Below, one piece after another: positions 5,014 to 25,929 of a stretch of DNA of 33,908 nt. The position numbers and the translations under genes were made by a program. Numbering within the stretch: the stretch's first letter is position 1; each line of letters begins with the position of its first letter. The stretch comes from a virus, in the IMG/VR virus record IMGVR_UViG_3300029130_000028, positions 1 to 33,908 of that record. One strand, 5' to 3'. A model generated the notes under the pieces. The model saw nothing but the letters and a program-made list of their open reading frames with translations, did no database searches and was not told the origin of the DNA.

Positions 5014-5550
5014 TCAGTCCCAAAGGTGGGATTCGCAGTGTGTCGCCCAGTCGCTGTTCATGGCGGCGATGGCCTGTTCGTAGTTTTCGCCGTTGACGAT
5101 GGCGTCCAGCGCCTTCTTGCCAGCTGCGGATTTTGCGTCGTTTTCGGACGCCGCGAACTCCTGCGCGTCCAAATACGCCTTGGCGCAGGGGTACTGGGCG
5201 TACATGGCATCCATGTCATACTTCGGCTTGGGACGGACGCCCACGCCGCCGCCGTTCTCGCTGTCAAAACTGGCGTCAAATTCCAGTTTCCAATTTACCA
5301 GATCGGCACGGGCGGCTTCGATCTCCCGCAGGCCGGGAATGGCGGCGATTTTCTTCTGCCGCTCCTGCTCTGCGCGGATACCGGCTTCGCGCTGCTCCAG
5401 CAGAGTGGCCACGATCTCCGGCTTTGCGGCTTTGATGGCGGCAAGAGCCGCTTTGTCGGCGCGGTACACAACCAGATTTCCGGTGGGCTGGCCGTGTTCG
5501 TCGAGTTTCAGGGAAATCCTGTACCGCAGAATCAGTTCCTGTGCGTTCAT
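5014..5550 (-). CDS. Hypothetical protein (178 aa), moron operon
   Basis: CAGGAGGAAC lies upstream of the ATG at 5550. No family was recognised. Confidence 0.6.
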   Translation of the reverse strand: MNAQELILRYRISLKLDEHGQPTGNLVVYRADKAALAAIKAAKPEIVATLLEQREAGIRAEQERQKKIAAIPGLREIEAARADLVNWKLEFDASFDSENGGGVGVRPKPKYDMDAMYAQYPCAKAYLDAQEFAASENDAKSAAGKKALDAIVNGENYEQAIAAMNSDWATHCESHLWD

Positions 5551-17852: not shown

Positions 17853-18623
17853 TCAAGAAAACAGTCCGAGAACTTTGTTGATTTTTTCAGGGCTTCCGCC
17901 GCCCTGGGGTTCCTTGTTGGGCGCAGGCACCCAGGGTGCCGCTGCCAAGTCGCGGAGCTGCGCCGCCAGCGATTTCTGATACCGGAGATGCTGCTCCATG
18001 CCGGCGTTCATCTTCTGCAGGATGGTGGACGCGCCGCTCATGTCAGCGTCGGTGTCGGCAAGGCGATCCGCGAGACCGAGCTCAACACACTGCTCAGCGG
18101 TCAGCCACGTTTCCGCGTCCATCATCTCCGACAAACGCTCCTCCGTCAGTTTGTCGCCGGCCTTCTGCAGATACGCCTGCCGCCCCGCAGCATTGATGAC
18201 GTCCAGGTCATCCGCCGCCTTCCGCAGCTCCGTGGCATTGCCGCAGGCGCACATCCACATGTTGTGGATCATCATCAGGGTGTTACGCGGCATGATCACC
18301 TCGTCGCCCGCCATGGCGATCACGGAGGCGATGGAACAGGCGAAGCCGTCCACGTGCACCACCTTCCGCGCCGGATGACGCTTCAGCTGGTTGTAGATCG
18401 CCGTGCCTTCAAAGACGCTGCCACCGTAGCTGTTGATGTAGATCTCGATGCGCGACACGTCGGGATGCTTCGCCAGCTCTTCGCGGAAGTGCTCCGCACT
18501 GTTGTCGCTCTGGACGTACCGCCAGCTCTCCCAATCGAACTCCTCGCCTTCTACGTCACCGTAGATGTAGAGCTGCAGGATGCCCTCCGCAGCCTGCTTG
18601 ATTTCCCAAAGGGGTTTCCTCAT
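17853..18623 (-). CDS. Prohead serine protease (ClpP family)
   Basis: The translation contains IYINSYGGSVFEGTAIYNQLKRHPARKVVHVDGFACSIASVIAMAGDEVIMPRNTLMMIHN. There is an ATGA overlap with the portal stop. Confidence 0.9.
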   Translation of the reverse strand: MRKPLWEIKQAAEGILQLYIYGDVEGEEFDWESWRYVQSDNSAEHFREELAKHPDVSRIEIYINSYGGSVFEGTAIYNQLKRHPARKVVHVDGFACSIASVIAMAGDEVIMPRNTLMMIHNMWMCACGNATELRKAADDLDVINAAGRQAYLQKAGDKLTEERLSEMMDAETWLTAEQCVELGLADRLADTDADMSGASTILQKMNAGMEQHLRYQKSLAAQLRDLAAAPWVPAPNKEPQGGGSPEKINKVLGLFS

Positions 18624-19804
18624 GCGTTTCCTCCTTCCGCACCGCCGAGCACAGAGGTCTCCGAACCCAGCGTTGCAATATTTTTCGTGAGATAGTGCTT
18701 GTCCGCCCAATCCTCCGAGATGGCGGGCAAACCTGCCGCCCGCAAGACCTCGTTGATGGAGAACACGCCGGAGCCGACCAGCTTCTCCACGTTCGCCGCG
18801 TTGGCGAACATATCGAAGTGGCGGATGCTGCTGGTATCAATGCGGAGATAGTCGCCGCGCTGGATCCGGTCGTAGCCGTACCGCTTGCGGTTGATTTCCT
18901 CCTGCAGCTGATCGCAGATGGGATCGATGCAGCCGGTCAGGAATCTGCCCTGCGCGTCCTCCGTGCCTTGGATGCTGCCATCCACCAGTACCGCCGGAAT
19001 CTGGAACGCCTTCGCCGTGAACGCGAAGATGTCCTTCATCTGGCTCTGGATGTCCGACAGTTCTACAGCAGCCTTACCGCCCTCGCTTGTGTAGGCGTAG
19101 CCGTCAAACTCCGGCAGGATAGAGCCATCAGAGTCGAGGAAGGTTTTTACCTGCTCTTCGATCATCTGCGAGAACTTCTGTGTGAAGTCATCCGCGCCGG
19201 AGGCCAGCTGACTCACGTGAACTTTCCAGTGCTGCCCCTTGTCCCACGCATACCGCCGCATGGCGGCATTGATGAGCCGCACGTAGGAGCCGTACAGGCC
19301 ATCCAGCACCGGCTTGATATTCACGTGGTTCAGCGTAAGATGCAGGACTTCCCGCTCGCGGAAGGTCTTCTCGTAGGACACATCGCCTACCTGCACGCTT
19401 GTGTACTCATTCTGCTTGCTGGGATAGCTGCCGCCGGTCATATAGCTGTCCGCTACGACCAACGCGTCATAACCCTCCCGCTGCCGGGTACCGATGACCA
19501 GCGCCTCATTGTCCACCAGCAGCTTCGCGACCAGCTTGTGCAGGAACGCCGTGGAGTTCTGGTTTACGTTCGGTTCCACGTTCCAGAGATAGTGTTCGCG
19601 CTCTCGAACTTCCTTGCCATCCCGGAACGTCCGGAATTCGCAGCGCCCGACGGCGTTGGCGATCATGTTCGCGCAGATCCAGAAGCAGGTGTCCCGCAGC
19701 TGGAATTCCTGCGCCGCTGCCAGAAGATCGCGGCACGTGATCTCCACCGTGGTGGGAGAACGAGCCTTACCTCCGGCGAGCCACTTCCAAAAATTAAGTG
19801 CCAT
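18620..19804 (-). CDS. Portal protein (HK97 family)
   Basis: The 394-aa ORF lies between terL and the protease. The translation begins MALNFWKWLAG... and the RBS is AGGAGGTGG. Confidence 0.88.
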   Translation of the reverse strand: MALNFWKWLAGGKARSPTTVEITCRDLLAAAQEFQLRDTCFWICANMIANAVGRCEFRTFRDGKEVREREHYLWNVEPNVNQNSTAFLHKLVAKLLVDNEALVIGTRQREGYDALVVADSYMTGGSYPSKQNEYTSVQVGDVSYEKTFREREVLHLTLNHVNIKPVLDGLYGSYVRLINAAMRRYAWDKGQHWKVHVSQLASGADDFTQKFSQMIEEQVKTFLDSDGSILPEFDGYAYTSEGGKAAVELSDIQSQMKDIFAFTAKAFQIPAVLVDGSIQGTEDAQGRFLTGCIDPICDQLQEEINRKRYGYDRIQRGDYLRIDTSSIRHFDMFANAANVEKLVGSGVFSINEVLRAAGLPAISEDWADKHYLTKNIATLGSETSVLGGAEGGNA

Positions 19805-19814
19805 TGCCCACCTC

Positions 19815-21500
19815 CTATAGCCGGATCGCGCCGATGGGCGGCAGCTTTACCGGCTCGCCGGTGCCAAGCACCGCCTCCTCAGTCATAGATGCCACCAGAG
19901 CCATGAACGGGTCCGTCTTCCGGCTCTTCGGTTCGATCTTGGCGTAGTAAAAATTTCCTGTATTCGTACCGGCACGTTGGCCGCTGCGCACTCTTTTGGT
20001 ATTGTTCACTCCCCAGCGCAGGGGGGGGTTGTCGCCCCATGTAAACAGGTCGCGATCAAAGCATTCCTGAATCACCGGGTCAACCTGCATGATGTCGCTG
20101 GGTCGAACCAGCTTCACGCGGTTCTTGTCCCTGGCGTCAAAGCCGATGCGCCGCATGGCGTCGCTCACCAGCGTCCAGCGGAAGTGGTCCATTGCCAGTT
20201 TGACGATGCTGTACTTCAAGCCCATCTCCTTCAGGTAGTCCGCCAGGAGGTTGGGGTCGATACTCACATCGTCCACCACCGTCAGCTTTCCCGCCTCCGC
20301 CCAAGCTCGCCACGGGGCGACGATGCGGGAGAGCGACCGGCTCTGCAGGCAGACCCACGAATGGTTGATGTCGAAGCGCTGCGCTCCGATGCGGAAGTGC
20401 AGATTGACGCTCGCCCAGTCGTTGATCTCCGCGTAGTCGATGCCGGCCACGCAGGACTTTCCGCGGAGATCCGGCAGCGGCCGGTTGGTCGCCTTGACCT
20501 TGGCATAGTCCGTCACGCTGATCTCCAGCTGGCCGGCGCGGAGACCCATGCGCTTTGTCAGGAAGTCCCCATTCTGCTCCGGGTTGACCAGCCAGTCCGC
20601 GTATTCCTCCTCGATCTCTTGCCGCAGGTGAGGGACATAGGACAGCGATGGGTTCGCCATGAACCAGTTCTCCGGGTCATTGACCTGCTCCCGGTTTTCC
20701 AGGCAGCAGATGAACGGGAGATAGCCCCCCTCCGGCTCCGCTTCGTTCTCGAAGAGGATCCGCCGCCCCTGAGCTATGAAGTCATCCAGCGGGCCATCAG
20801 ACACGTCGCCGTTCGATGTGAACATCCCGATGCGCGGCTGTCCGACCTTACCCAGACCGGTGACGAAAACCTTGTAGTTGTTGTAGTTCTCAAAGGCGTG
20901 GACTTCGTTAAAGACGACCTTGCCGGAGCGCATACCATCTCGCCCCTTGGGGTTGTTGGTGCGCCCCTTCATCACGCCCTTGTTCTTCCGACCCTGCACC
21001 ATCTCCTTGGTGTGGTAATAGTGCCGGTTGAGCTTTGACTCCCACTTAGGGGATTCAAGGACTTCGGACAGATCCTTCACCGGCGTGACCGCCTGCTCCT
21101 CGTTGTTGGCGCACACGTCCACGTTGTAGTTCTTCACGGGATTGTAAGGGGAGATGGAGCACGCGCCATCAAAGGCGATGAAGCCGTCCTTTCCTGCGCC
21201 GCGCCCCACCATGCAGAGCAGCTTTTTCCACCGTGGCCGCCCATCGGCGCGATACGTACAGTCCCACAGCGCGAGGAGGAACTCCTCCCACGGGAACAGC
21301 CGCTCATAGGGGAAGTAGCGCAGCAGGCTCAGATACCGGCGCAACTGCTCCGTGTCTACGCAGATGTCCTCCGTGTCGAACACGCGGCGGATCATCGCCA
21401 CCAGCGCGTGCTGTTCGGGACAGGCGCGGGGATTATTGGACTCGACAATCTCGATATAGCGCAGAACCTCCGCGGGGATCTCACAGCTCATCGTCATCAT
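19815..21500 (-). CDS. terL: Terminase large subunit
   Basis: The ORF is 561 aa. Walker A-like MVGRGAGKD is present, followed by the nuclease half. It overlaps the terS end. Confidence 0.92.
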   Translation of the reverse strand: MMTMSCEIPAEVLRYIEIVESNNPRACPEQHALVAMIRRVFDTEDICVDTEQLRRYLSLLRYFPYERLFPWEEFLLALWDCTYRADGRPRWKKLLCMVGRGAGKDGFIAFDGACSISPYNPVKNYNVDVCANNEEQAVTPVKDLSEVLESPKWESKLNRHYYHTKEMVQGRKNKGVMKGRTNNPKGRDGMRSGKVVFNEVHAFENYNNYKVFVTGLGKVGQPRIGMFTSNGDVSDGPLDDFIAQGRRILFENEAEPEGGYLPFICCLENREQVNDPENWFMANPSLSYVPHLRQEIEEEYADWLVNPEQNGDFLTKRMGLRAGQLEISVTDYAKVKATNRPLPDLRGKSCVAGIDYAEINDWASVNLHFRIGAQRFDINHSWVCLQSRSLSRIVAPWRAWAEAGKLTVVDDVSIDPNLLADYLKEMGLKYSIVKLAMDHFRWTLVSDAMRRIGFDARDKNRVKLVRPSDIMQVDPVIQECFDRDLFTWGDNPPLRWGVNNTKRVRSGQRAGTNTGNFYYAKIEPKSRKTDPFMALVASMTEEAVLGTGEPVKLPPIGAIRL

Positions 21501-22095
21501 CGCCCCGGGCGGCAGCTGCCAGAGCGTCCTCCTTAAAGCCCAGCGTGGTGAAGATCGCCAGCATCTGGCGGGAGACCTGGATCTCCAGCGACACGCTGCG
21601 GTTTTCCATCAGCCGCCCCCGGTCATCCGTGACGGTCAGCCCGCGCCGGGCAATGTCGTCCCGCAGCTCCTGCCGCCGAACCCAAAAGTCCATATATTCC
21701 TGCACCTTGTCCCGGTACACGTCGCCGTCAAGATCTCTGTCGCTCAGATTCTGCAGCATCGACTGCCGGAGTTCCTTATAGGCGTCCGTCAGGCGGTAGT
21801 TCTTCCTCTTCTGCGGCGGCGCGTCATGGCACGCCCGCTGCGCCTCCAGGTGCCGCGCCATGGACACGTTCTTCTTCGCTGCGGCGACCTGCTCGCCGCG
21901 CAGAACAATGCGCCCCATCATAGCCAGCCGGTCAAACGCGCTCCGGAAGCCCTCGCCGTAGGTGTCCAAGCACCAAGCATTCAGAGCCGCCTCGTCGCAG
22001 CCAAACCAGCCACACAGCTCCTCCACGGAGCACTGCATACTGCACAAGCTCTCAAATTGCTTTCGGTCAAATTCACGCTGCCCGGTCACTACCAT
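21481..22095 (-). CDS. terS: Terminase small subunit (P27-like C-terminal region)
   Basis: The ATG at 22095 lies 4 nt after the radical SAM stop. The translation contains ...YKELRQSMLQNL...EYMDFWVRRQELRDDIARRGLTVTDDRGRLMENRSVSLEIQVSRQMLAIFTTLGF. It sits directly upstream of terL. Confidence 0.7.
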   Translation of the reverse strand: MVVTGQREFDRKQFESLCSMQCSVEELCGWFGCDEAALNAWCLDTYGEGFRSAFDRLAMMGRIVLRGEQVAAAKKNVSMARHLEAQRACHDAPPQKRKNYRLTDAYKELRQSMLQNLSDRDLDGDVYRDKVQEYMDFWVRRQELRDDIARRGLTVTDDRGRLMENRSVSLEIQVSRQMLAIFTTLGFKEDALAAAARGDDDDEL

Positions 22096-22099
22096 CACC

Positions 22100-23434
22100 T
22101 CACTTAAACGGTTTGCCCCACAACTTTTCAACTTTTGCATACGTCCGTAAATACCTGCTGGGGAGCGTTTCCGGACTGAATCGCCCGAATAGGGTATCCA
22201 CATCGAAGTAGCGCTCCAACGTGGCGACCCGGACTGCCGTTGACGCAGACCAGAACTTACGAGACCGCGAAACTCTCATAATCGCGTCCGTGTCCGCAGA
22301 TGACCCACGATGACAGATAGCCGACAGAATGACCGTGGGAAGAGATTCCGTTCCCATGCTTTCTACTGCCCAAAGGTTACGCCCTTGATAGATCAGATTA
22401 CCTTTAAGCCCAGCTCCAAGAACGTGCCCGATCTCTCCACGATAATTGCGGTAGCTCATAGGCTCACACGCCATGGGCGTGGCAGGCATAGCGCGGAACG
22501 GGGTACAGTGCAGAACGATAGACCAAGGCCTGTCTATTAACGCAGAATCCCTATCCGCTTGACCGATAACATCAACAATCTCATACCAGTCCGCCTCTGT
22601 CTCCGTCGGATACCCCACGATGCTGTATAGCTTAACCTGGTGCGGCTTGCCTTGATAGCGAAGCATTGCTCCCAAGAAGTCCAGCAGCACAGCCTTGGTA
22701 ATTGGCTTGTTGACCATCCGCCTAAGGCGCTCGCTCATTCCGTCAATAGAGGTCGTTCGTAGGCGCGAAAAATTTACTTCAGCAAGATTCTTGTGTAAAT
22801 CCAGCAACGCGCGTTCCTTCTCTGCAATCCCGCCAAACAGAGAATCCTGCATGTAGTAAAAGTTATCAGGGGAAACGAAGCGACGCTGCCAGGTGTAACC
22901 ACAGAACATGCACCTATGATTGCAACCGATAGGTCCTTCACGGAAGTCGCGGGTCTCGCTTAGTGAAATCTTGTGAGGATACGGGCTGGAAGCCTGAGCA
23001 ATCTTGTAAATACGATCCGGCGAGAATGTTTTACTGCACGCCACGCTCTCGTGCTCCCATCCTCCATCTCGCTCAATCCCGCGAACCAGCGGCACGATCA
23101 GATTCTCGCCACGACCAAAAATGAAGAAGTCGCCAAACGGCAGGAACGGCGCAATGTGGAGCAGACCCGCGCCGCCGATGACTACCTTGTAATTTCCCGG
23201 CTGCCACTTTGTTCGCTCCGAAATAAAGCTCCACCAATCGCAATCACTGGTTAAAGACACAAGCACCACATCGTAATTGTGAACCGTAGCCGCGCCCGCA
23301 TACTCAACCTCATACCCGGCACGCTCCAGGCAGTCCACAATGACACGAAGTCCGGCAAACTGACGCGTCTCCATGCACTCGTTCTTATAGTTGACTTTGG
23401 CATAAGCTTCTTGGACATAAGCACATATCTTCAT
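22100..23434 (-). CDS. Radical SAM enzyme with an N-terminal Rossmann/B12-binding-like domain (444 aa)
   Basis: GCNHRCMFCGY carries the CX3CX2C 4Fe-4S/SAM motif. The N-terminal region DVVLVSLTSDC...VVIGGAGLLH...FIFGRGENLIVPLV resembles class-B radical SAM N-domains. There is an ATGA overlap with the upstream gene. GC is lower than in the flanks. Confidence 0.85.
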   Translation of the reverse strand: MKICAYVQEAYAKVNYKNECMETRQFAGLRVIVDCLERAGYEVEYAGAATVHNYDVVLVSLTSDCDWWSFISERTKWQPGNYKVVIGGAGLLHIAPFLPFGDFFIFGRGENLIVPLVRGIERDGGWEHESVACSKTFSPDRIYKIAQASSPYPHKISLSETRDFREGPIGCNHRCMFCGYTWQRRFVSPDNFYYMQDSLFGGIAEKERALLDLHKNLAEVNFSRLRTTSIDGMSERLRRMVNKPITKAVLLDFLGAMLRYQGKPHQVKLYSIVGYPTETEADWYEIVDVIGQADRDSALIDRPWSIVLHCTPFRAMPATPMACEPMSYRNYRGEIGHVLGAGLKGNLIYQGRNLWAVESMGTESLPTVILSAICHRGSSADTDAIMRVSRSRKFWSASTAVRVATLERYFDVDTLFGRFSPETLPSRYLRTYAKVEKLWGKPFK

Positions 23435-23895
23435 GCGTCCACCTCAAAGGCAAAGCCGCACTTAGGACAGTGCAGCAGCTGACGGTTGCCGCCATCGGTT
23501 GGTTCGTCATCATCCAGATCAAGCGGAGATTTATCCGGCAAACCCCACTCGAAATCAAACGCCGACAGATCCAGCTCCGGCAGCTCGGCGGCCAGCAGGT
23601 CGAGATCCCACGGACTCTCGTTGGTCTTGTTGTCCACAAGACGCAGGGCGTTCACCTGCTCCGGCGTCAGATCATCGACGCAGACGCAGGGCACCTCGAC
23701 CATGCCCAGCTTCTCCGCCGCCAGGGCGCGGCAATGACCAATGACGATTACGCCGTCCCGGTCTACAACGACCGGCTGCACAAAGCCGTACTGCCGGATA
23801 CTCTCTGCCACATTAGCTACCTGCGCGGCGTCATGCCTCTTGGCGTTGGCGCGATACGGCGTCAGCTCCACCAGCGGCCTGTTCTCGATTCGCAT
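23431..23895 (-). CDS. ParB-like nuclease N-domain (ParBc/Srx fold) protein with a C-terminal zinc ribbon (154 aa)
   Basis: The ATG at 23895 has the RBS AGGAGGTGA. The translation is LTPYRANAKRHD...IRQYGFVQPVVVDRDGVIVIGHCRALAA...DDLTPEQVNALRLVDNK, ending in HCPKCGFAF. The track start at 23925 is a GTG inside the palindrome. Confidence 0.8.
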   Translation of the reverse strand: MRIENRPLVELTPYRANAKRHDAAQVANVAESIRQYGFVQPVVVDRDGVIVIGHCRALAAEKLGMVEVPCVCVDDLTPEQVNALRLVDNKTNESPWDLDLLAAELPELDLSAFDFEWGLPDKSPLDLDDDEPTDGGNRQLLHCPKCGFAFEVDA

Positions 23896-23925: not shown

Positions 23926-24235
23926 CGCGCCCGCCTCAGGCCAGCCAGCCTACGTCAATACCCCGCGCATCCAGCGCAGGCTTTCGGCTGACCAGCCTGA
24001 GGCATTCTTCTGCGGCTTTGCGGGACGGGCGGACGAGCCGCCCGAACCGAGGAAAAAGGAGAAGAGTACTTTCGGAGCTGCCCGCCCCGCAAAACCGCAG
24101 CTTTTCTGAAATTGCCCGGCGATTCTCGCGCCCACGCGCAGCGCGGCACCGCGCAGACGCGGAAATCGCTGGAATGTCTTGGACCCCCGCGAGTAGCAAC
24201 AAGGACGCGAGGGGCGTTTTTTCGAGGGGGGGGCA

Positions 24236-24583
24236 TCAATCCCACCGCTCCGGCGTCAGAGGCGGCGCAGACGGCGCGTATTGCCGCTGGCTATCCGGAT
24301 GCAGCTCCTCATGACAACGCTTGCAGACGGCCTCCAGCTGTCGGCAATCGCCATCGTAGACGGACAGCGCCAGGTCGGGACGATCGCGCAGATGCCTGAC
24401 GTGATGGACGATACTGGCCTTGGAGTACACGCCGCGCCGCTTGCATTCCTGGCACTCGCAGTTATCAACCGTGAGCACCTCCCGGCGCAGCCGCCGCCAC
24501 TCTGGCCAGGAGTAGAACTCATGCTCCGACCCCGCCTCGAGAAGCCCGCGCAGTTCCGCGAGCCTGCTTGCTGAAATTCCCAT
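24236..24583 (-). CDS. HNH endonuclease (packaging-associated type)
   Basis: The ATG at 24583 has the RBS GGGAGGGG. The translation contains CECQECKRRG....IVHHVRHLRDRPDLAL......LEAVCKRCHEELH. Confidence 0.85.
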   Translation of the reverse strand: MGISASRLAELRGLLEAGSEHEFYSWPEWRRLRREVLTVDNCECQECKRRGVYSKASIVHHVRHLRDRPDLALSVYDGDCRQLEAVCKRCHEELHPDSQRQYAPSAPPLTPERWD

Positions 24584-24646
24584 GCGCCCCTCCCGTCTTC
24601 GTCTCCGGCGTTCCGGCTCGCGGCTATCACCTCGCGGCAAAACAAA

Positions 24647-24705
24647 AACGCCGGAGACCATGACGCAGCACCAACGTGTGGTGTCTAATCATGGGCTCCG
24701 GCGTT
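24647..24705 (-). terminator. Long composite hairpin plus U tract at the early/late boundary
   Basis: On the minus strand, AACGCCGGAG pairs with CTCCGGCGTT. Inner stems are CCATGA/TCATGG and CACCA/TGGTG. TTTGTTTTG (24646-24638) follows. The 5' arm overlaps the end of the 24685-24894 ORF. Confidence 0.55.
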
Positions 24706-24950: not shown

Positions 24951-25739
24951 TTAGTACATACCGAAACCGCCTTGATGCGGCATACGCTTCCCGTCTATCA
25001 CAGTCGGATGGAGAGGATCCTGCTCAATGTACCAGCCATACTGGTAGTGGCCAAACCCATTATCCACCGTATACCGGCCGCACACCCGGCAATCGTCCGG
25101 AATCTCAATGCTCCCCGAATCAGATCGGAAGTATTCAGGCGGCGGCAACTGCCGCGCAAGGCTGCGCGACGCCACCCACGTCCTGGCATCGATTGGAATG
25201 ACAATGCCGTCGCTGCGCTCCTTGCAGTAGTATCTGGCAGTGCGCCGATAGCTGTCAAATGTGCCCAGCAGCAGGGGCTGCGACGAGATGATATACCCCT
25301 GCCTCCAGAGATCTTCCATGATCATGGGAGGGAAGTCGTTATATCGCACCGTGAGATGCATGTGGTAACGATGGTCCCCATGGCGCCCCTCGATGAGGTA
25401 GACATAGTCAGGCGTCACGCCGTCATGCCACTTCTTCATCTGGTAAAGCAATCGGCGCCAGCACAATCGAACATCTGCAAAACTGGGCGGAAGATGCACC
25501 TCGTCAAAGGTCAGCGTGTAGCTCCACCCATCAAAGCCGAAAAGCGCCAGCAATAGCTCCAGGCGATCCATGCGCGTCCGGCAGACGCCGGAGTCCCGCG
25601 GCGGGCGGAGAATTTTATTTTTCTCCGCCCACTCATACGGGCTGTCGTACTGACTGAGCCGCGGACGTATGGCGCGCTGCTCCTTCACCAGCGGGCCGGC
25701 GCGCTGCCGCACGCAGATCCAGCGCCCTTCACCGGCCAT
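24951..25739 (-). CDS. HUH-type rolling-circle replication initiator-like protein (262 aa)
   Basis: Three motifs occur in the canonical order. Motif I-like is WSYTLTFDE. Motif II is HRYHMHLTV (HUH). Motif III-like is ARYYCKE (YxxK). The ATG at 25739 has the RBS GGAGG. Confidence 0.6.
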   Translation of the reverse strand: MAGEGRWICVRQRAGPLVKEQRAIRPRLSQYDSPYEWAEKNKILRPPRDSGVCRTRMDRLELLLALFGFDGWSYTLTFDEVHLPPSFADVRLCWRRLLYQMKKWHDGVTPDYVYLIEGRHGDHRYHMHLTVRYNDFPPMIMEDLWRQGYIISSQPLLLGTFDSYRRTARYYCKERSDGIVIPIDARTWVASRSLARQLPPPEYFRSDSGSIEIPDDCRVCGRYTVDNGFGHYQYGWYIEQDPLHPTVIDGKRMPHQGGFGMY

Positions 25740-25929
25740 CTCGAGCCTCCACACAAACCGTTTGCAAGCCGTCAGCCACGACACATTGCGCCGCGCTAAT
25801 CGTCCCCGCCACAGCATCCATCACGACCACCGCCGCGGATATGGCTCCGTAGACCTTAGGCGGGACGCACGCAGCAGACTCATCCAGATACGCCCTCAGG
25901 ACTTCGGCCGACTCCACGATGCCCATCAT
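25729..25929 (-). CDS. Hypothetical small protein (66 aa)
   Basis: There is an ATGA overlap with the upstream stop, and the RBS is GGAGGTGGAG. The translation begins MMGIVESAEVLRAYLDESAAC. Confidence 0.45.
   Translation of the reverse strand: MMGIVESAEVLRAYLDESAACVPPKVYGAISAAVVVMDAVAGTISAAQCVVADGLQTVCVEARDGR

Follow-up and report, generated by a model that had tools for sequence, protein, structure and literature searches.

We describe a two-gene module in a 33,908-nt stretch of viral DNA, IMG/VR record IMGVR_UViG_3300029130_000028 (the whole of which is referred to here as the window), in which a small protein with a ParB/Srx-fold nucleoside triphosphate (NTP)-binding domain (ParB-N) is encoded directly ahead of a 444-aa radical S-adenosylmethionine (SAM) enzyme (rSAM). 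Comparison with a sister phage indicates that the acidic linker and tail that end the ParB-N protein travel with the rSAM enzyme, and that together they take the place of the N6/N4 DNA methyltransferase (MTase) domain that the sister carries in the same slot. We hypothesize, with confidence that is about evenly divided, that the two proteins are the subunits of an enzyme for the post-replicative modification of phage DNA. The features on which the argument turns are as follows:

23431..23895, minus strand: ParB-N partner, 154 aa, ParB/Srx-fold NTP-binding domain (Pfam PF02195, phrog_620)
23434..23538, minus strand: acidic linker and C-terminal tail of the partner (…LDLDDDEPTDGGNRQLLH-CPKCGFAFEVDA), with the CPKCG knuckle at 23469-23455
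22100..23434, minus strand: rSAM enzyme, 444 aa, of an uncharacterized COG1032-like family (family searches, structure model, and fold matches)
22901..22924, minus strand: CxxxCxxC [4Fe-4S]/SAM cluster motif CNHRCMFC (C171, C175, C178), invariant in homologs
22081..23542, minus strand: swapped cassette of linker, tail, and rSAM (blastn breakpoints against MT835558.1; low G+C at third codon positions)

The ParB-N gene starts with the ATG at 23895, behind an AGGAGG Shine-Dalgarno sequence at 23908-23903, and a longer alternative open reading frame (ORF) from GTG 23925 is probably unused. Its TGA stop codon (23433-23431) shares bases with the ATG of the rSAM gene (23434-23432), and the position of the ParB-N gene and its ATGA overlap with the rSAM gene, both described in an earlier note made from the sequence alone, were borne out. 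The two genes are translationally coupled and are the first in the late/packaging operon.

Cassette swap with a sister phage

A tblastn search of GenBank phages with the ParB-N protein found MT835558.1, a human faecal phage that matched at 92% identity over ParB-N residues 1-128 and not at all over the tail. MT835558.1 has the same backbone as the window (the gene for a 288-aa protein [orf288], HNH, ParB-N, terS, terL, and portal), and the shared backbone is 77-91% identical at the nucleotide level. Its ParB-N domain runs on into an N6/N4 MTase with a DPPY motif, the whole protein being 438 aa. When the two genomes were aligned by blastn, homology covered 23927-23543 (91%), was followed by a gap, and then covered 22080-18001 (82%). 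Given that homology stops at 23543 and resumes at 22080, window positions 22081-23542 are the replaced cassette. This alignment indicates that the linker, the tail, and the rSAM enzyme form one exchangeable cassette that replaces the N6/N4 MTase domain, and the earlier proposal that a separate rSAM enzyme replaces the MTase half of such a fusion is directly confirmed by the fusion found in this slot in MT835558.1.

The composition of the genes follows the same boundaries. The rSAM gene has a G+C content of 52.4% and a G+C content at third codon positions (GC3) of 0.58, compared to 62.5% and 0.79 for the region encoding the ParB-N domain and 62.4% and 0.81 for terS. The composition of the rSAM gene had already been called foreign, and the full counts support this (flanks of 62-63% and about 0.8). 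The GC3 of the linker and tail, at 0.53, is close to that of the rSAM gene, while the flanks range from 0.79 to 0.82. Since in GC3 the linker and tail go with the rSAM gene and not with the ParB-N domain, the tail and the enzyme arrived jointly and form a functional unit. The pair does lie between HNH and terS, as had been noted, but this does not represent a special insertion; the MTase fusion of the sister phage occupies the same place, so this lineage ordinarily has a DNA-modification gene at that point.

The ParB-N-MTase fusions of phrog_498 share with the window a homologous ParB-N domain, its presumed role as a DNA-engaging module and, in MT835558.1, the slot between HNH and terS. They differ in that the MTase is a fused Rossmann domain, whereas the window has a separate rSAM enzyme and a partner that ends in a linker and a CPKCG knuckle.

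The ParB-N partner and its C-terminal tail

The partner scored 28.9 bits against Pfam ParB_N (PF02195; cut-off, 26.3) and matched phrog_620 (3e-43) and phrog_498 (1.5e-35) among the PHROGs, and its score of 28 bits against TIGR00180 was under the cut-off of 58.45. It is built of an N-domain, a linker, and a tail only, and the helix-turn-helix (HTH) domain, dimerization domain, and ParA-binding motif of canonical partition ParB proteins were not found in it. Across 108 unique partners, the GxxR P-motif was kept (G63 in 99% and R66 in 95%), as were N27 (95%) and N99 (96%). NTP binding by ParB-N is plausible, given that the P-motif residues are kept, and a role for the P-motif arginine of ParB folds has been described (PMC12704722).

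The window partner ends in H-CPKC-GFAFEVDA, and the general form of this C terminus is an acidic linker, CPKCG-[F/H/Y]-x-[F/W/Y], and then 0-5 residues. Within the same 108 partners, C153, P154, C156, and G157 were present in 100%, K155 in 96%, and F158 in 83%, and mean column identity was 0.48 in the ParB-N domain and 0.34 in the linker. By this measure, no part of the partner is conserved as strongly as the CPKCG tail, on which selection acts at the protein level. Every synonymous codon is used at the conserved positions of 118 distinct tails, and this free variation indicates that selection acts on the tail peptide; a constraint from RNA or the ribosome-binding site was rejected as the cause of the conservation for the same reason. 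Only the last E-V codons of the tail overlap the Shine-Dalgarno sequence of the rSAM gene, and a terminator-like hairpin in the tail codons was not above shuffle expectation.

The tail had been described in the earlier note as a zinc ribbon, and this part of the description did not hold. It is a single CxxC knuckle and no second Cys/His pair is conserved (at least 80%) in cis in the partner outside the P-motif region, so the tail is not a complete zinc ribbon. With a single knuckle, four metal ligands would require two tails or a partner surface. We presume, by analogy only, that the tail is comparable to the C-terminal CPxCG knuckle of rubredoxin and to the intermolecular CxxC zinc hook of Rad50.

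Pairing of ParB-N and rSAM genes across phages

Loci were collected from IMG/VR and from GTDB genomes using the rSAM protein, its alignment, and two alignments of distant subfamilies as queries. This gave 137 distinct rSAM genes, and upstream sequence was present for 122. An ORF ending in CP[KR]CG lay just 5' of the rSAM gene in 109 of the 122, in most cases overlapping it by 4 nt or separated from it by <20 nt, while a tail ORF lay directly 3' of the rSAM gene in one. The 12 without a tail ORF include one CPNCG variant and one with a frame problem, and the others fall in distant subfamilies. The partner was a ParB-N protein of 150-230 aa in almost every case, and pairing with a tail-bearing partner extended to rSAM subfamilies whose identity to the window protein is only 25-28%. 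These counts indicate that the pairing is ancient and, for the rSAM enzyme, nearly obligate. The prophage-like contigs hit in genomes carried assignments to Clostridia, Oscillibacter, Collinsella, Planctomycetes, Dissulfurispiraceae, Hydrogenedentota, and others. The module seems restricted to anaerobe-assigned phages and prophages, those of gut Clostridia and of lineages from digesters or sediments.

The association of the pair with packaging genes in related phages was real and general. Among 71 ORFs scanned 3' of the module, the TerL types included HK97-type (20), GpA-type (7), T4-type (5), and Terminase_3 (3), and there were 10 P27-type terS genes. With no fewer than four terminase families found after it, the module is tied to the slot and not to one packaging machine, and specificity for one terminase type was dropped as an explanation. 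The slot upstream of the terminase also houses phage DNA methylases.

Tails without rSAM and rSAM without a tail

An exact scan of IMG/VR for CPKCGFxFE returned 62 sites, of which 58 were ParB-N C termini. The rSAM gene lay directly 3' of 42 of these 58, and about 16 had no rSAM gene; the idea that the tail is exclusive to rSAM was rejected on this count. In nine rSAM-less contigs (L213, 6111-8219, plus strand, and eight similar ones), a tail-bearing ParB-N gene is found with a second ParB-N gene and a C5 cytosine DNA methylase. The second ParB-N protein in these tandems is 154 aa and tail-less. Elsewhere, a D12 N6-adenine methylase follows the rSAM-less tail-bearing ParB-N gene, and at L230 (3551-6866, plus strand) the genes that follow encode a 302-aa unknown protein and QueD, QueE, and QueC of the 7-deazaguanine pathway. 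An RNA ligase gene and a polynucleotide kinase-phosphatase-like gene lie upstream at L230. Given the variety of DNA-modification genes found with ParB-N-tail proteins, the rSAM enzyme may be in the same functional class, and the tail is probably not solely a substrate of the rSAM enzyme.

After some rSAM-less tail-bearing ParB-N genes, the terminase or portal gene comes directly. At L220, the tail (~5130-5156, minus strand) is nearly identical to that of the rSAM-bearing loci L005/L212, with terS/terL directly after, and this locus looks like a natural rSAM deletion with the tail left behind. A distant orphan rSAM subfamily without ParB-N is found ahead of the terminase at L113 (3976-7109, plus strand), where the gene on its upstream side encodes one protein with both a DnaA-C HTH and a double zinc ribbon and the gene on its downstream side encodes an N6_N4 DNA methylase.

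Motif, family, and predicted fold of the rSAM protein

The C171-x3-C175-x2-C178 triad was invariant in 34/34 close homologs and in 109/109 full-length representatives of the family, clustered at 50% identity, so the CNHRCMFC motif reported in the earlier note is real. Profile searches recovered part of what had been expected of the pair: the ParB domain was over threshold, but Radical_SAM (7e-5, 23.5 bits; cut-off, 29.5) and B12-binding (E=1e-3, 19.4 bits for the N-domain; cut-off, 32.1) were below their gathering scores in Pfam. Some rSAM homologs carry a precomputed PF04055 match. The best NCBIfam match was TIGR03960 (1e-7), far under its cut-off, and there were weak matches to MiaB/RimO and MtaB. 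No PHROG family and no meaningful PADLOC model matched the rSAM protein, tblastn against 50,697 GenBank phage records gave no match, and neither the single protein nor its profile gave a PDB sequence match below E=0.1. A word-indexed search returned 626 homologs, the best 120 of which were full length at an identity of at least 62% with a functional name on none, and when 1.84 billion cluster representatives were searched with a profile, 1501 matched at E<=1e-3 and 185 at E<=1e-30. The module is widespread and unnamed, and the reference phage sets searched, PHROGs and the GenBank phage records, miss it.

The triad cysteines were the only cysteines universally conserved in the 109 representatives. 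C4, C20, C65, and C323 are invariant among close homologs, yet they are subfamily specific, with C4, C20, and C65 present in 4%, 7%, and 21% of the representatives. An auxiliary Fe-S cluster of the methylthiotransferase (MTTase) type at C4/C20/C65 was excluded, given that these cysteines are not kept in the wider family, and since only the triad is conserved across the family the enzyme is predicted to have no auxiliary cluster. Other conserved positions are, in the N-terminal part, GGxG (87-90), N/H93, D102, and G107-R108-x-E110 and, further on, E166, D231-G232, R238, K243, E278, D282, T319-P320, and R376. We take the N-terminal motifs (GGxG…GRGE) to resemble those of the N-domains of B12-dependent rSAM enzymes.

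An AlphaFold2 model of the rSAM protein was confident (predicted local distance difference test score, 88.8; predicted template modeling [TM] score, 0.87), with disorder only at residues 14-23. Its three parts are a B12-binding-like Rossmann domain (~aa 1-125), the rSAM barrel, and a C-domain made up of helices (~aa 365-444). The Foldseek matches to PDB were MgmA (4e-10), MtaB (1.7e-6), MiaB (1.5e-4), and OxsB (3e-4). The N-domain matched the corrinoid proteins 1y80 and 8j2x (E ~0.02, probability 0.99). The B12-binding-like N-domain described earlier is supported by these corrinoid-protein folds, but the Pfam profile is sub-threshold and the case is weaker than had been stated. A single strong match came from BFVD (3e-25, TM ~0.7), a gut siphovirus protein labeled only "Fe-S oxidoreductase." Pfam and NCBIfam detected neither a TRAM domain, the C-terminal region being all-helical in the model, nor a SPASM/twitch or RRE-type peptide-recognition domain. 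Motif conservation and the model together indicate that the protein has an intact SAM-cluster motif and a fold like that of B12-dependent rSAM enzymes.

The class B rSAM enzymes MgmA (9ccb) and OxsB (5ul2) have a comparable architecture, with a Rossmann B12-type domain at the N terminus and then an rSAM barrel, and MgmA is the best Foldseek match. The identity of class B enzymes to the window protein is 12-15% at a TM score of ~0.45, with no curated model at threshold, and the substrates of known members are proteins, antibiotics, or lipids rather than DNA. MiaB, RimO, and MtaB have a similar overall three-part fold, but their three-Cys auxiliary-cluster site and TRAM domain were not found in the window protein.

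A candidate DNA-modifying enzyme and its alternatives

The explanation that we favor, which we hold with as much doubt as belief, is that ParB-N and rSAM form a two-subunit enzyme that modifies phage DNA post-replicatively and does the job of the ParB-N-MTase fusion of the sister phage. ParB-N would engage or open phage double-stranded DNA (dsDNA) and activate its enzyme, as in the ParB-dependent thymine dioxygenases. The acidic, flexible linker and the CPKCG[F]x[F] knuckle would tether the rSAM enzyme, with the knuckle probably binding metal between two tails or at the enzyme interface. The rSAM enzyme would then cleave SAM reductively to yield a 5'-deoxyadenosyl radical, which would alter a nucleobase at a carbon out of reach of ordinary SN2 methyltransferases; with a cobalamin cofactor, the simplest reaction would be C-methylation. 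The modified genome would be packaged and would resist host restriction. The further idea that this would be the first rSAM enzyme, possibly cobalamin dependent, to write a carbon-centered modification (e.g., C-methyl) on dsDNA, delivered by a ParB NTP switch and tethered by a knuckle, is tentative and we would not yet lean on it.

There is some precedent for such an arrangement. A phage ParB-like protein with a nucleotide-binding domain and a C-terminal domain, and no DNA-binding domain, was reported in 2026 to be obligate for a thymine dioxygenase acting on dsDNA, and clusters of thymine dioxygenases co-occur with ParBs (27%) and terminases (19%) (PMC13229309). By analogy, our module would be a ParB-activated post-replicative DNA modification of the kind grounded by that work. 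In that system, 5mYOX176/ParB176, there is likewise a stand-alone, HTH-less ParB-like gene beside the enzyme gene, often near terminases; the enzyme is an Fe(II)/2-oxoglutarate dioxygenase instead of an rSAM enzyme, and ParB176 has a C-terminal dimerization domain where the window partner has only a 12-residue knuckle tail (PMC13229309). The earlier note knew of no characterized function for the pairing. In the literature searched, no description of the ParB-N/rSAM pairing was found, but ParB-assisted phage DNA-modifying enzymes do have precedent (PMC13229309). A 2025 survey of the ParB-CTPase fold lists phage fusions to N6/N4 methylases and to DUFs and nowhere mentions radical SAM (PMC12704722). 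DndB and DpdB are also ParB/Srx-fold proteins alongside DNA-modification genes (compare the QueD/E/C neighbors at L230), but they are larger regulator/ATPase proteins in host defense islands, without a CPKCG tail or a B12-like rSAM partner.

If true, the proposal would add a new enzymatic route to modified phage DNA, by radical chemistry as opposed to SN2 methyl transfer or Fe/2-oxoglutarate oxidation, and a new base modification relevant to restriction evasion, metagenome sequencing artifacts, and biotechnology. It would also extend the recent finding of ParB-fold proteins as activators or adaptors of DNA-modifying enzymes. The invariant CPKCG tail offers a mutable handle on how a ParB adaptor works, and the sister phage, whose slot holds an MTase, provides a natural control.

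Several points count against this proposal. The DNA-substrate reading is based on gene context and analogy. MgmA, which gives the best fold match, acts on a protein, and MtaB and MiaB, which come next, act on tRNA. With the Pfam B12-binding match sub-threshold, cobalamin binding is no more than putative. To our knowledge, rSAM enzymes that act on polymeric dsDNA are rare, an example being spore photoproduct lyase. Accessory genes generally cluster upstream of the terminase, so position by itself carries little weight. Five contigs of a single lineage encode the tail on a 65-72-aa mini-protein with an acidic linker and without a ParB-N domain, which suggests that the rSAM enzyme needs a tail-bearing peptide and not ParB-N in cis. 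The mini-protein genes (L016, 5786-6004, plus strand; L018; L052; L058; and L070) lie between a 741-aa terminase-like ORF and the rSAM gene.

We considered whether the rSAM enzyme could instead act on RNA, a free nucleotide, or a small molecule as an auxiliary metabolic or anti-defense gene (for example, by MiaB/MtaB-like tRNA modification or SAM consumption), in which case the ParB-N pairing would reflect regulation or co-inheritance. The tRNA methylthiotransferases among the fold matches and the weak NCBIfam matches to MiaB/RimO and MtaB point this way, as do ten distant rSAM members without a tail partner within 5 kb, and ParB/Srx folds include small-molecule kinases such as SerK (PMC12704722). 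Against this, the three N-terminal cysteines that define MTTases are not conserved and TRAM was not detected, the coupling to ParB-N-tail proteins is near-obligate over 25-100% rSAM identity, and a DNA MTase fusion contains a ParB-N domain with 92% identity to the partner. We regard this explanation as unlikely, though with a real minority share of our confidence.

The tail itself could also be the substrate, with the rSAM enzyme acting as a protein or peptide maturase and the modified ParB-N as the active product. Candidate reactions would be C-methylation or a thioether or other crosslink at CPKCGFxF and, most speculatively, a glycyl-radical-like C-G-[FY] site. An invariant C-terminal tail behind a disordered acidic linker, encoded just before the enzyme, is reminiscent of a precursor-maturase pair; tail and enzyme move as a single cassette, some phages carry the tail on the mini-protein, and the top PDB fold match, MgmA, puts a methyl group on a protein side chain. 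However, the 16 or so exact-motif tails without an rSAM gene lie beside ordinary DNA methylases or Que genes, SPASM/twitch and RRE-type domains were not detected, and there is no auxiliary cluster, the triad being the only conserved cysteines of the family. A maturase role would also give no reason for finding the cassette in place of a DNA MTase domain, and we judge it improbable.

It is very hard to credit that the pair serves packaging itself (marking or processing of cos/pac sites or acting on the terminase) and not genome-wide protection, even though ParB proteins load at specific DNA sites and the module is immediately 5' of terS/terL in most loci and between terL and portal in one lineage, given that it is accompanied by at least four unrelated terminase families and that the sister phage, with the same terminase (82% nucleotide identity), packages without the module and so does not need it. 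DNA-modification genes also generally co-occur with terminases (PMC13229309).

Neighboring genes and other features of the locus

The remaining features of the locus are as follows:

21481..22095, minus strand: terS (Pfam Terminase_4; phrog_5110, 2e-16; the mechanical ORF extends to 22203)
19815..21500, minus strand: terL (Pfam TerL_ATPase and TerL_nuclease)
18620..19804, minus strand: portal, 3' of terL in gene order
24236..24661, minus strand: HNH endonuclease, 5' of the ParB-N/rSAM module (Pfam HNH; phrog_119, 5e-19)
24951..25817, minus strand: 288-aa ORF, 5' of HNH, conserved in relatives
23935..24001, minus strand: DUF3800-VIII motif, a structured RNA, 5' of the ParB-N gene in the leader of the operon (Rfam RF03075)

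The gene order on the minus strand is orf288, HNH, a 340-nt spacer, ParB-N, rSAM, terS, terL, and portal, and a second IMG/VR contig, IMGVR_UViG_3300045988_071938, is ~98% identical to the window. The mechanical terS ORF (21481-22203, minus strand) overlaps the 3' end of the rSAM gene by 104 nt, and its similarity to the related loci L080 and L066 starts only past M37. Because conservation with relatives begins after Met37, the true start of terS is most likely ATG 22095, 5 nt beyond the rSAM stop codon, rather than 22203.

The match to RF03075 (46.2 bits; gathering score, 40.2) lies ~40 nt 5' of the ParB-N start, inside a stretch of ~80 nt that the close relatives L080 and L066 lack. The motif was found in none of 11 related loci scanned, and the DUF3800-VIII RNA was dropped as a core part of the module on that account; it looks like a small inserted structured element. 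The 288-aa ORF (24951-25817) matched no Pfam family and is found at 94% identity in L001 and at ~30% identity in L005, L016, and L066.

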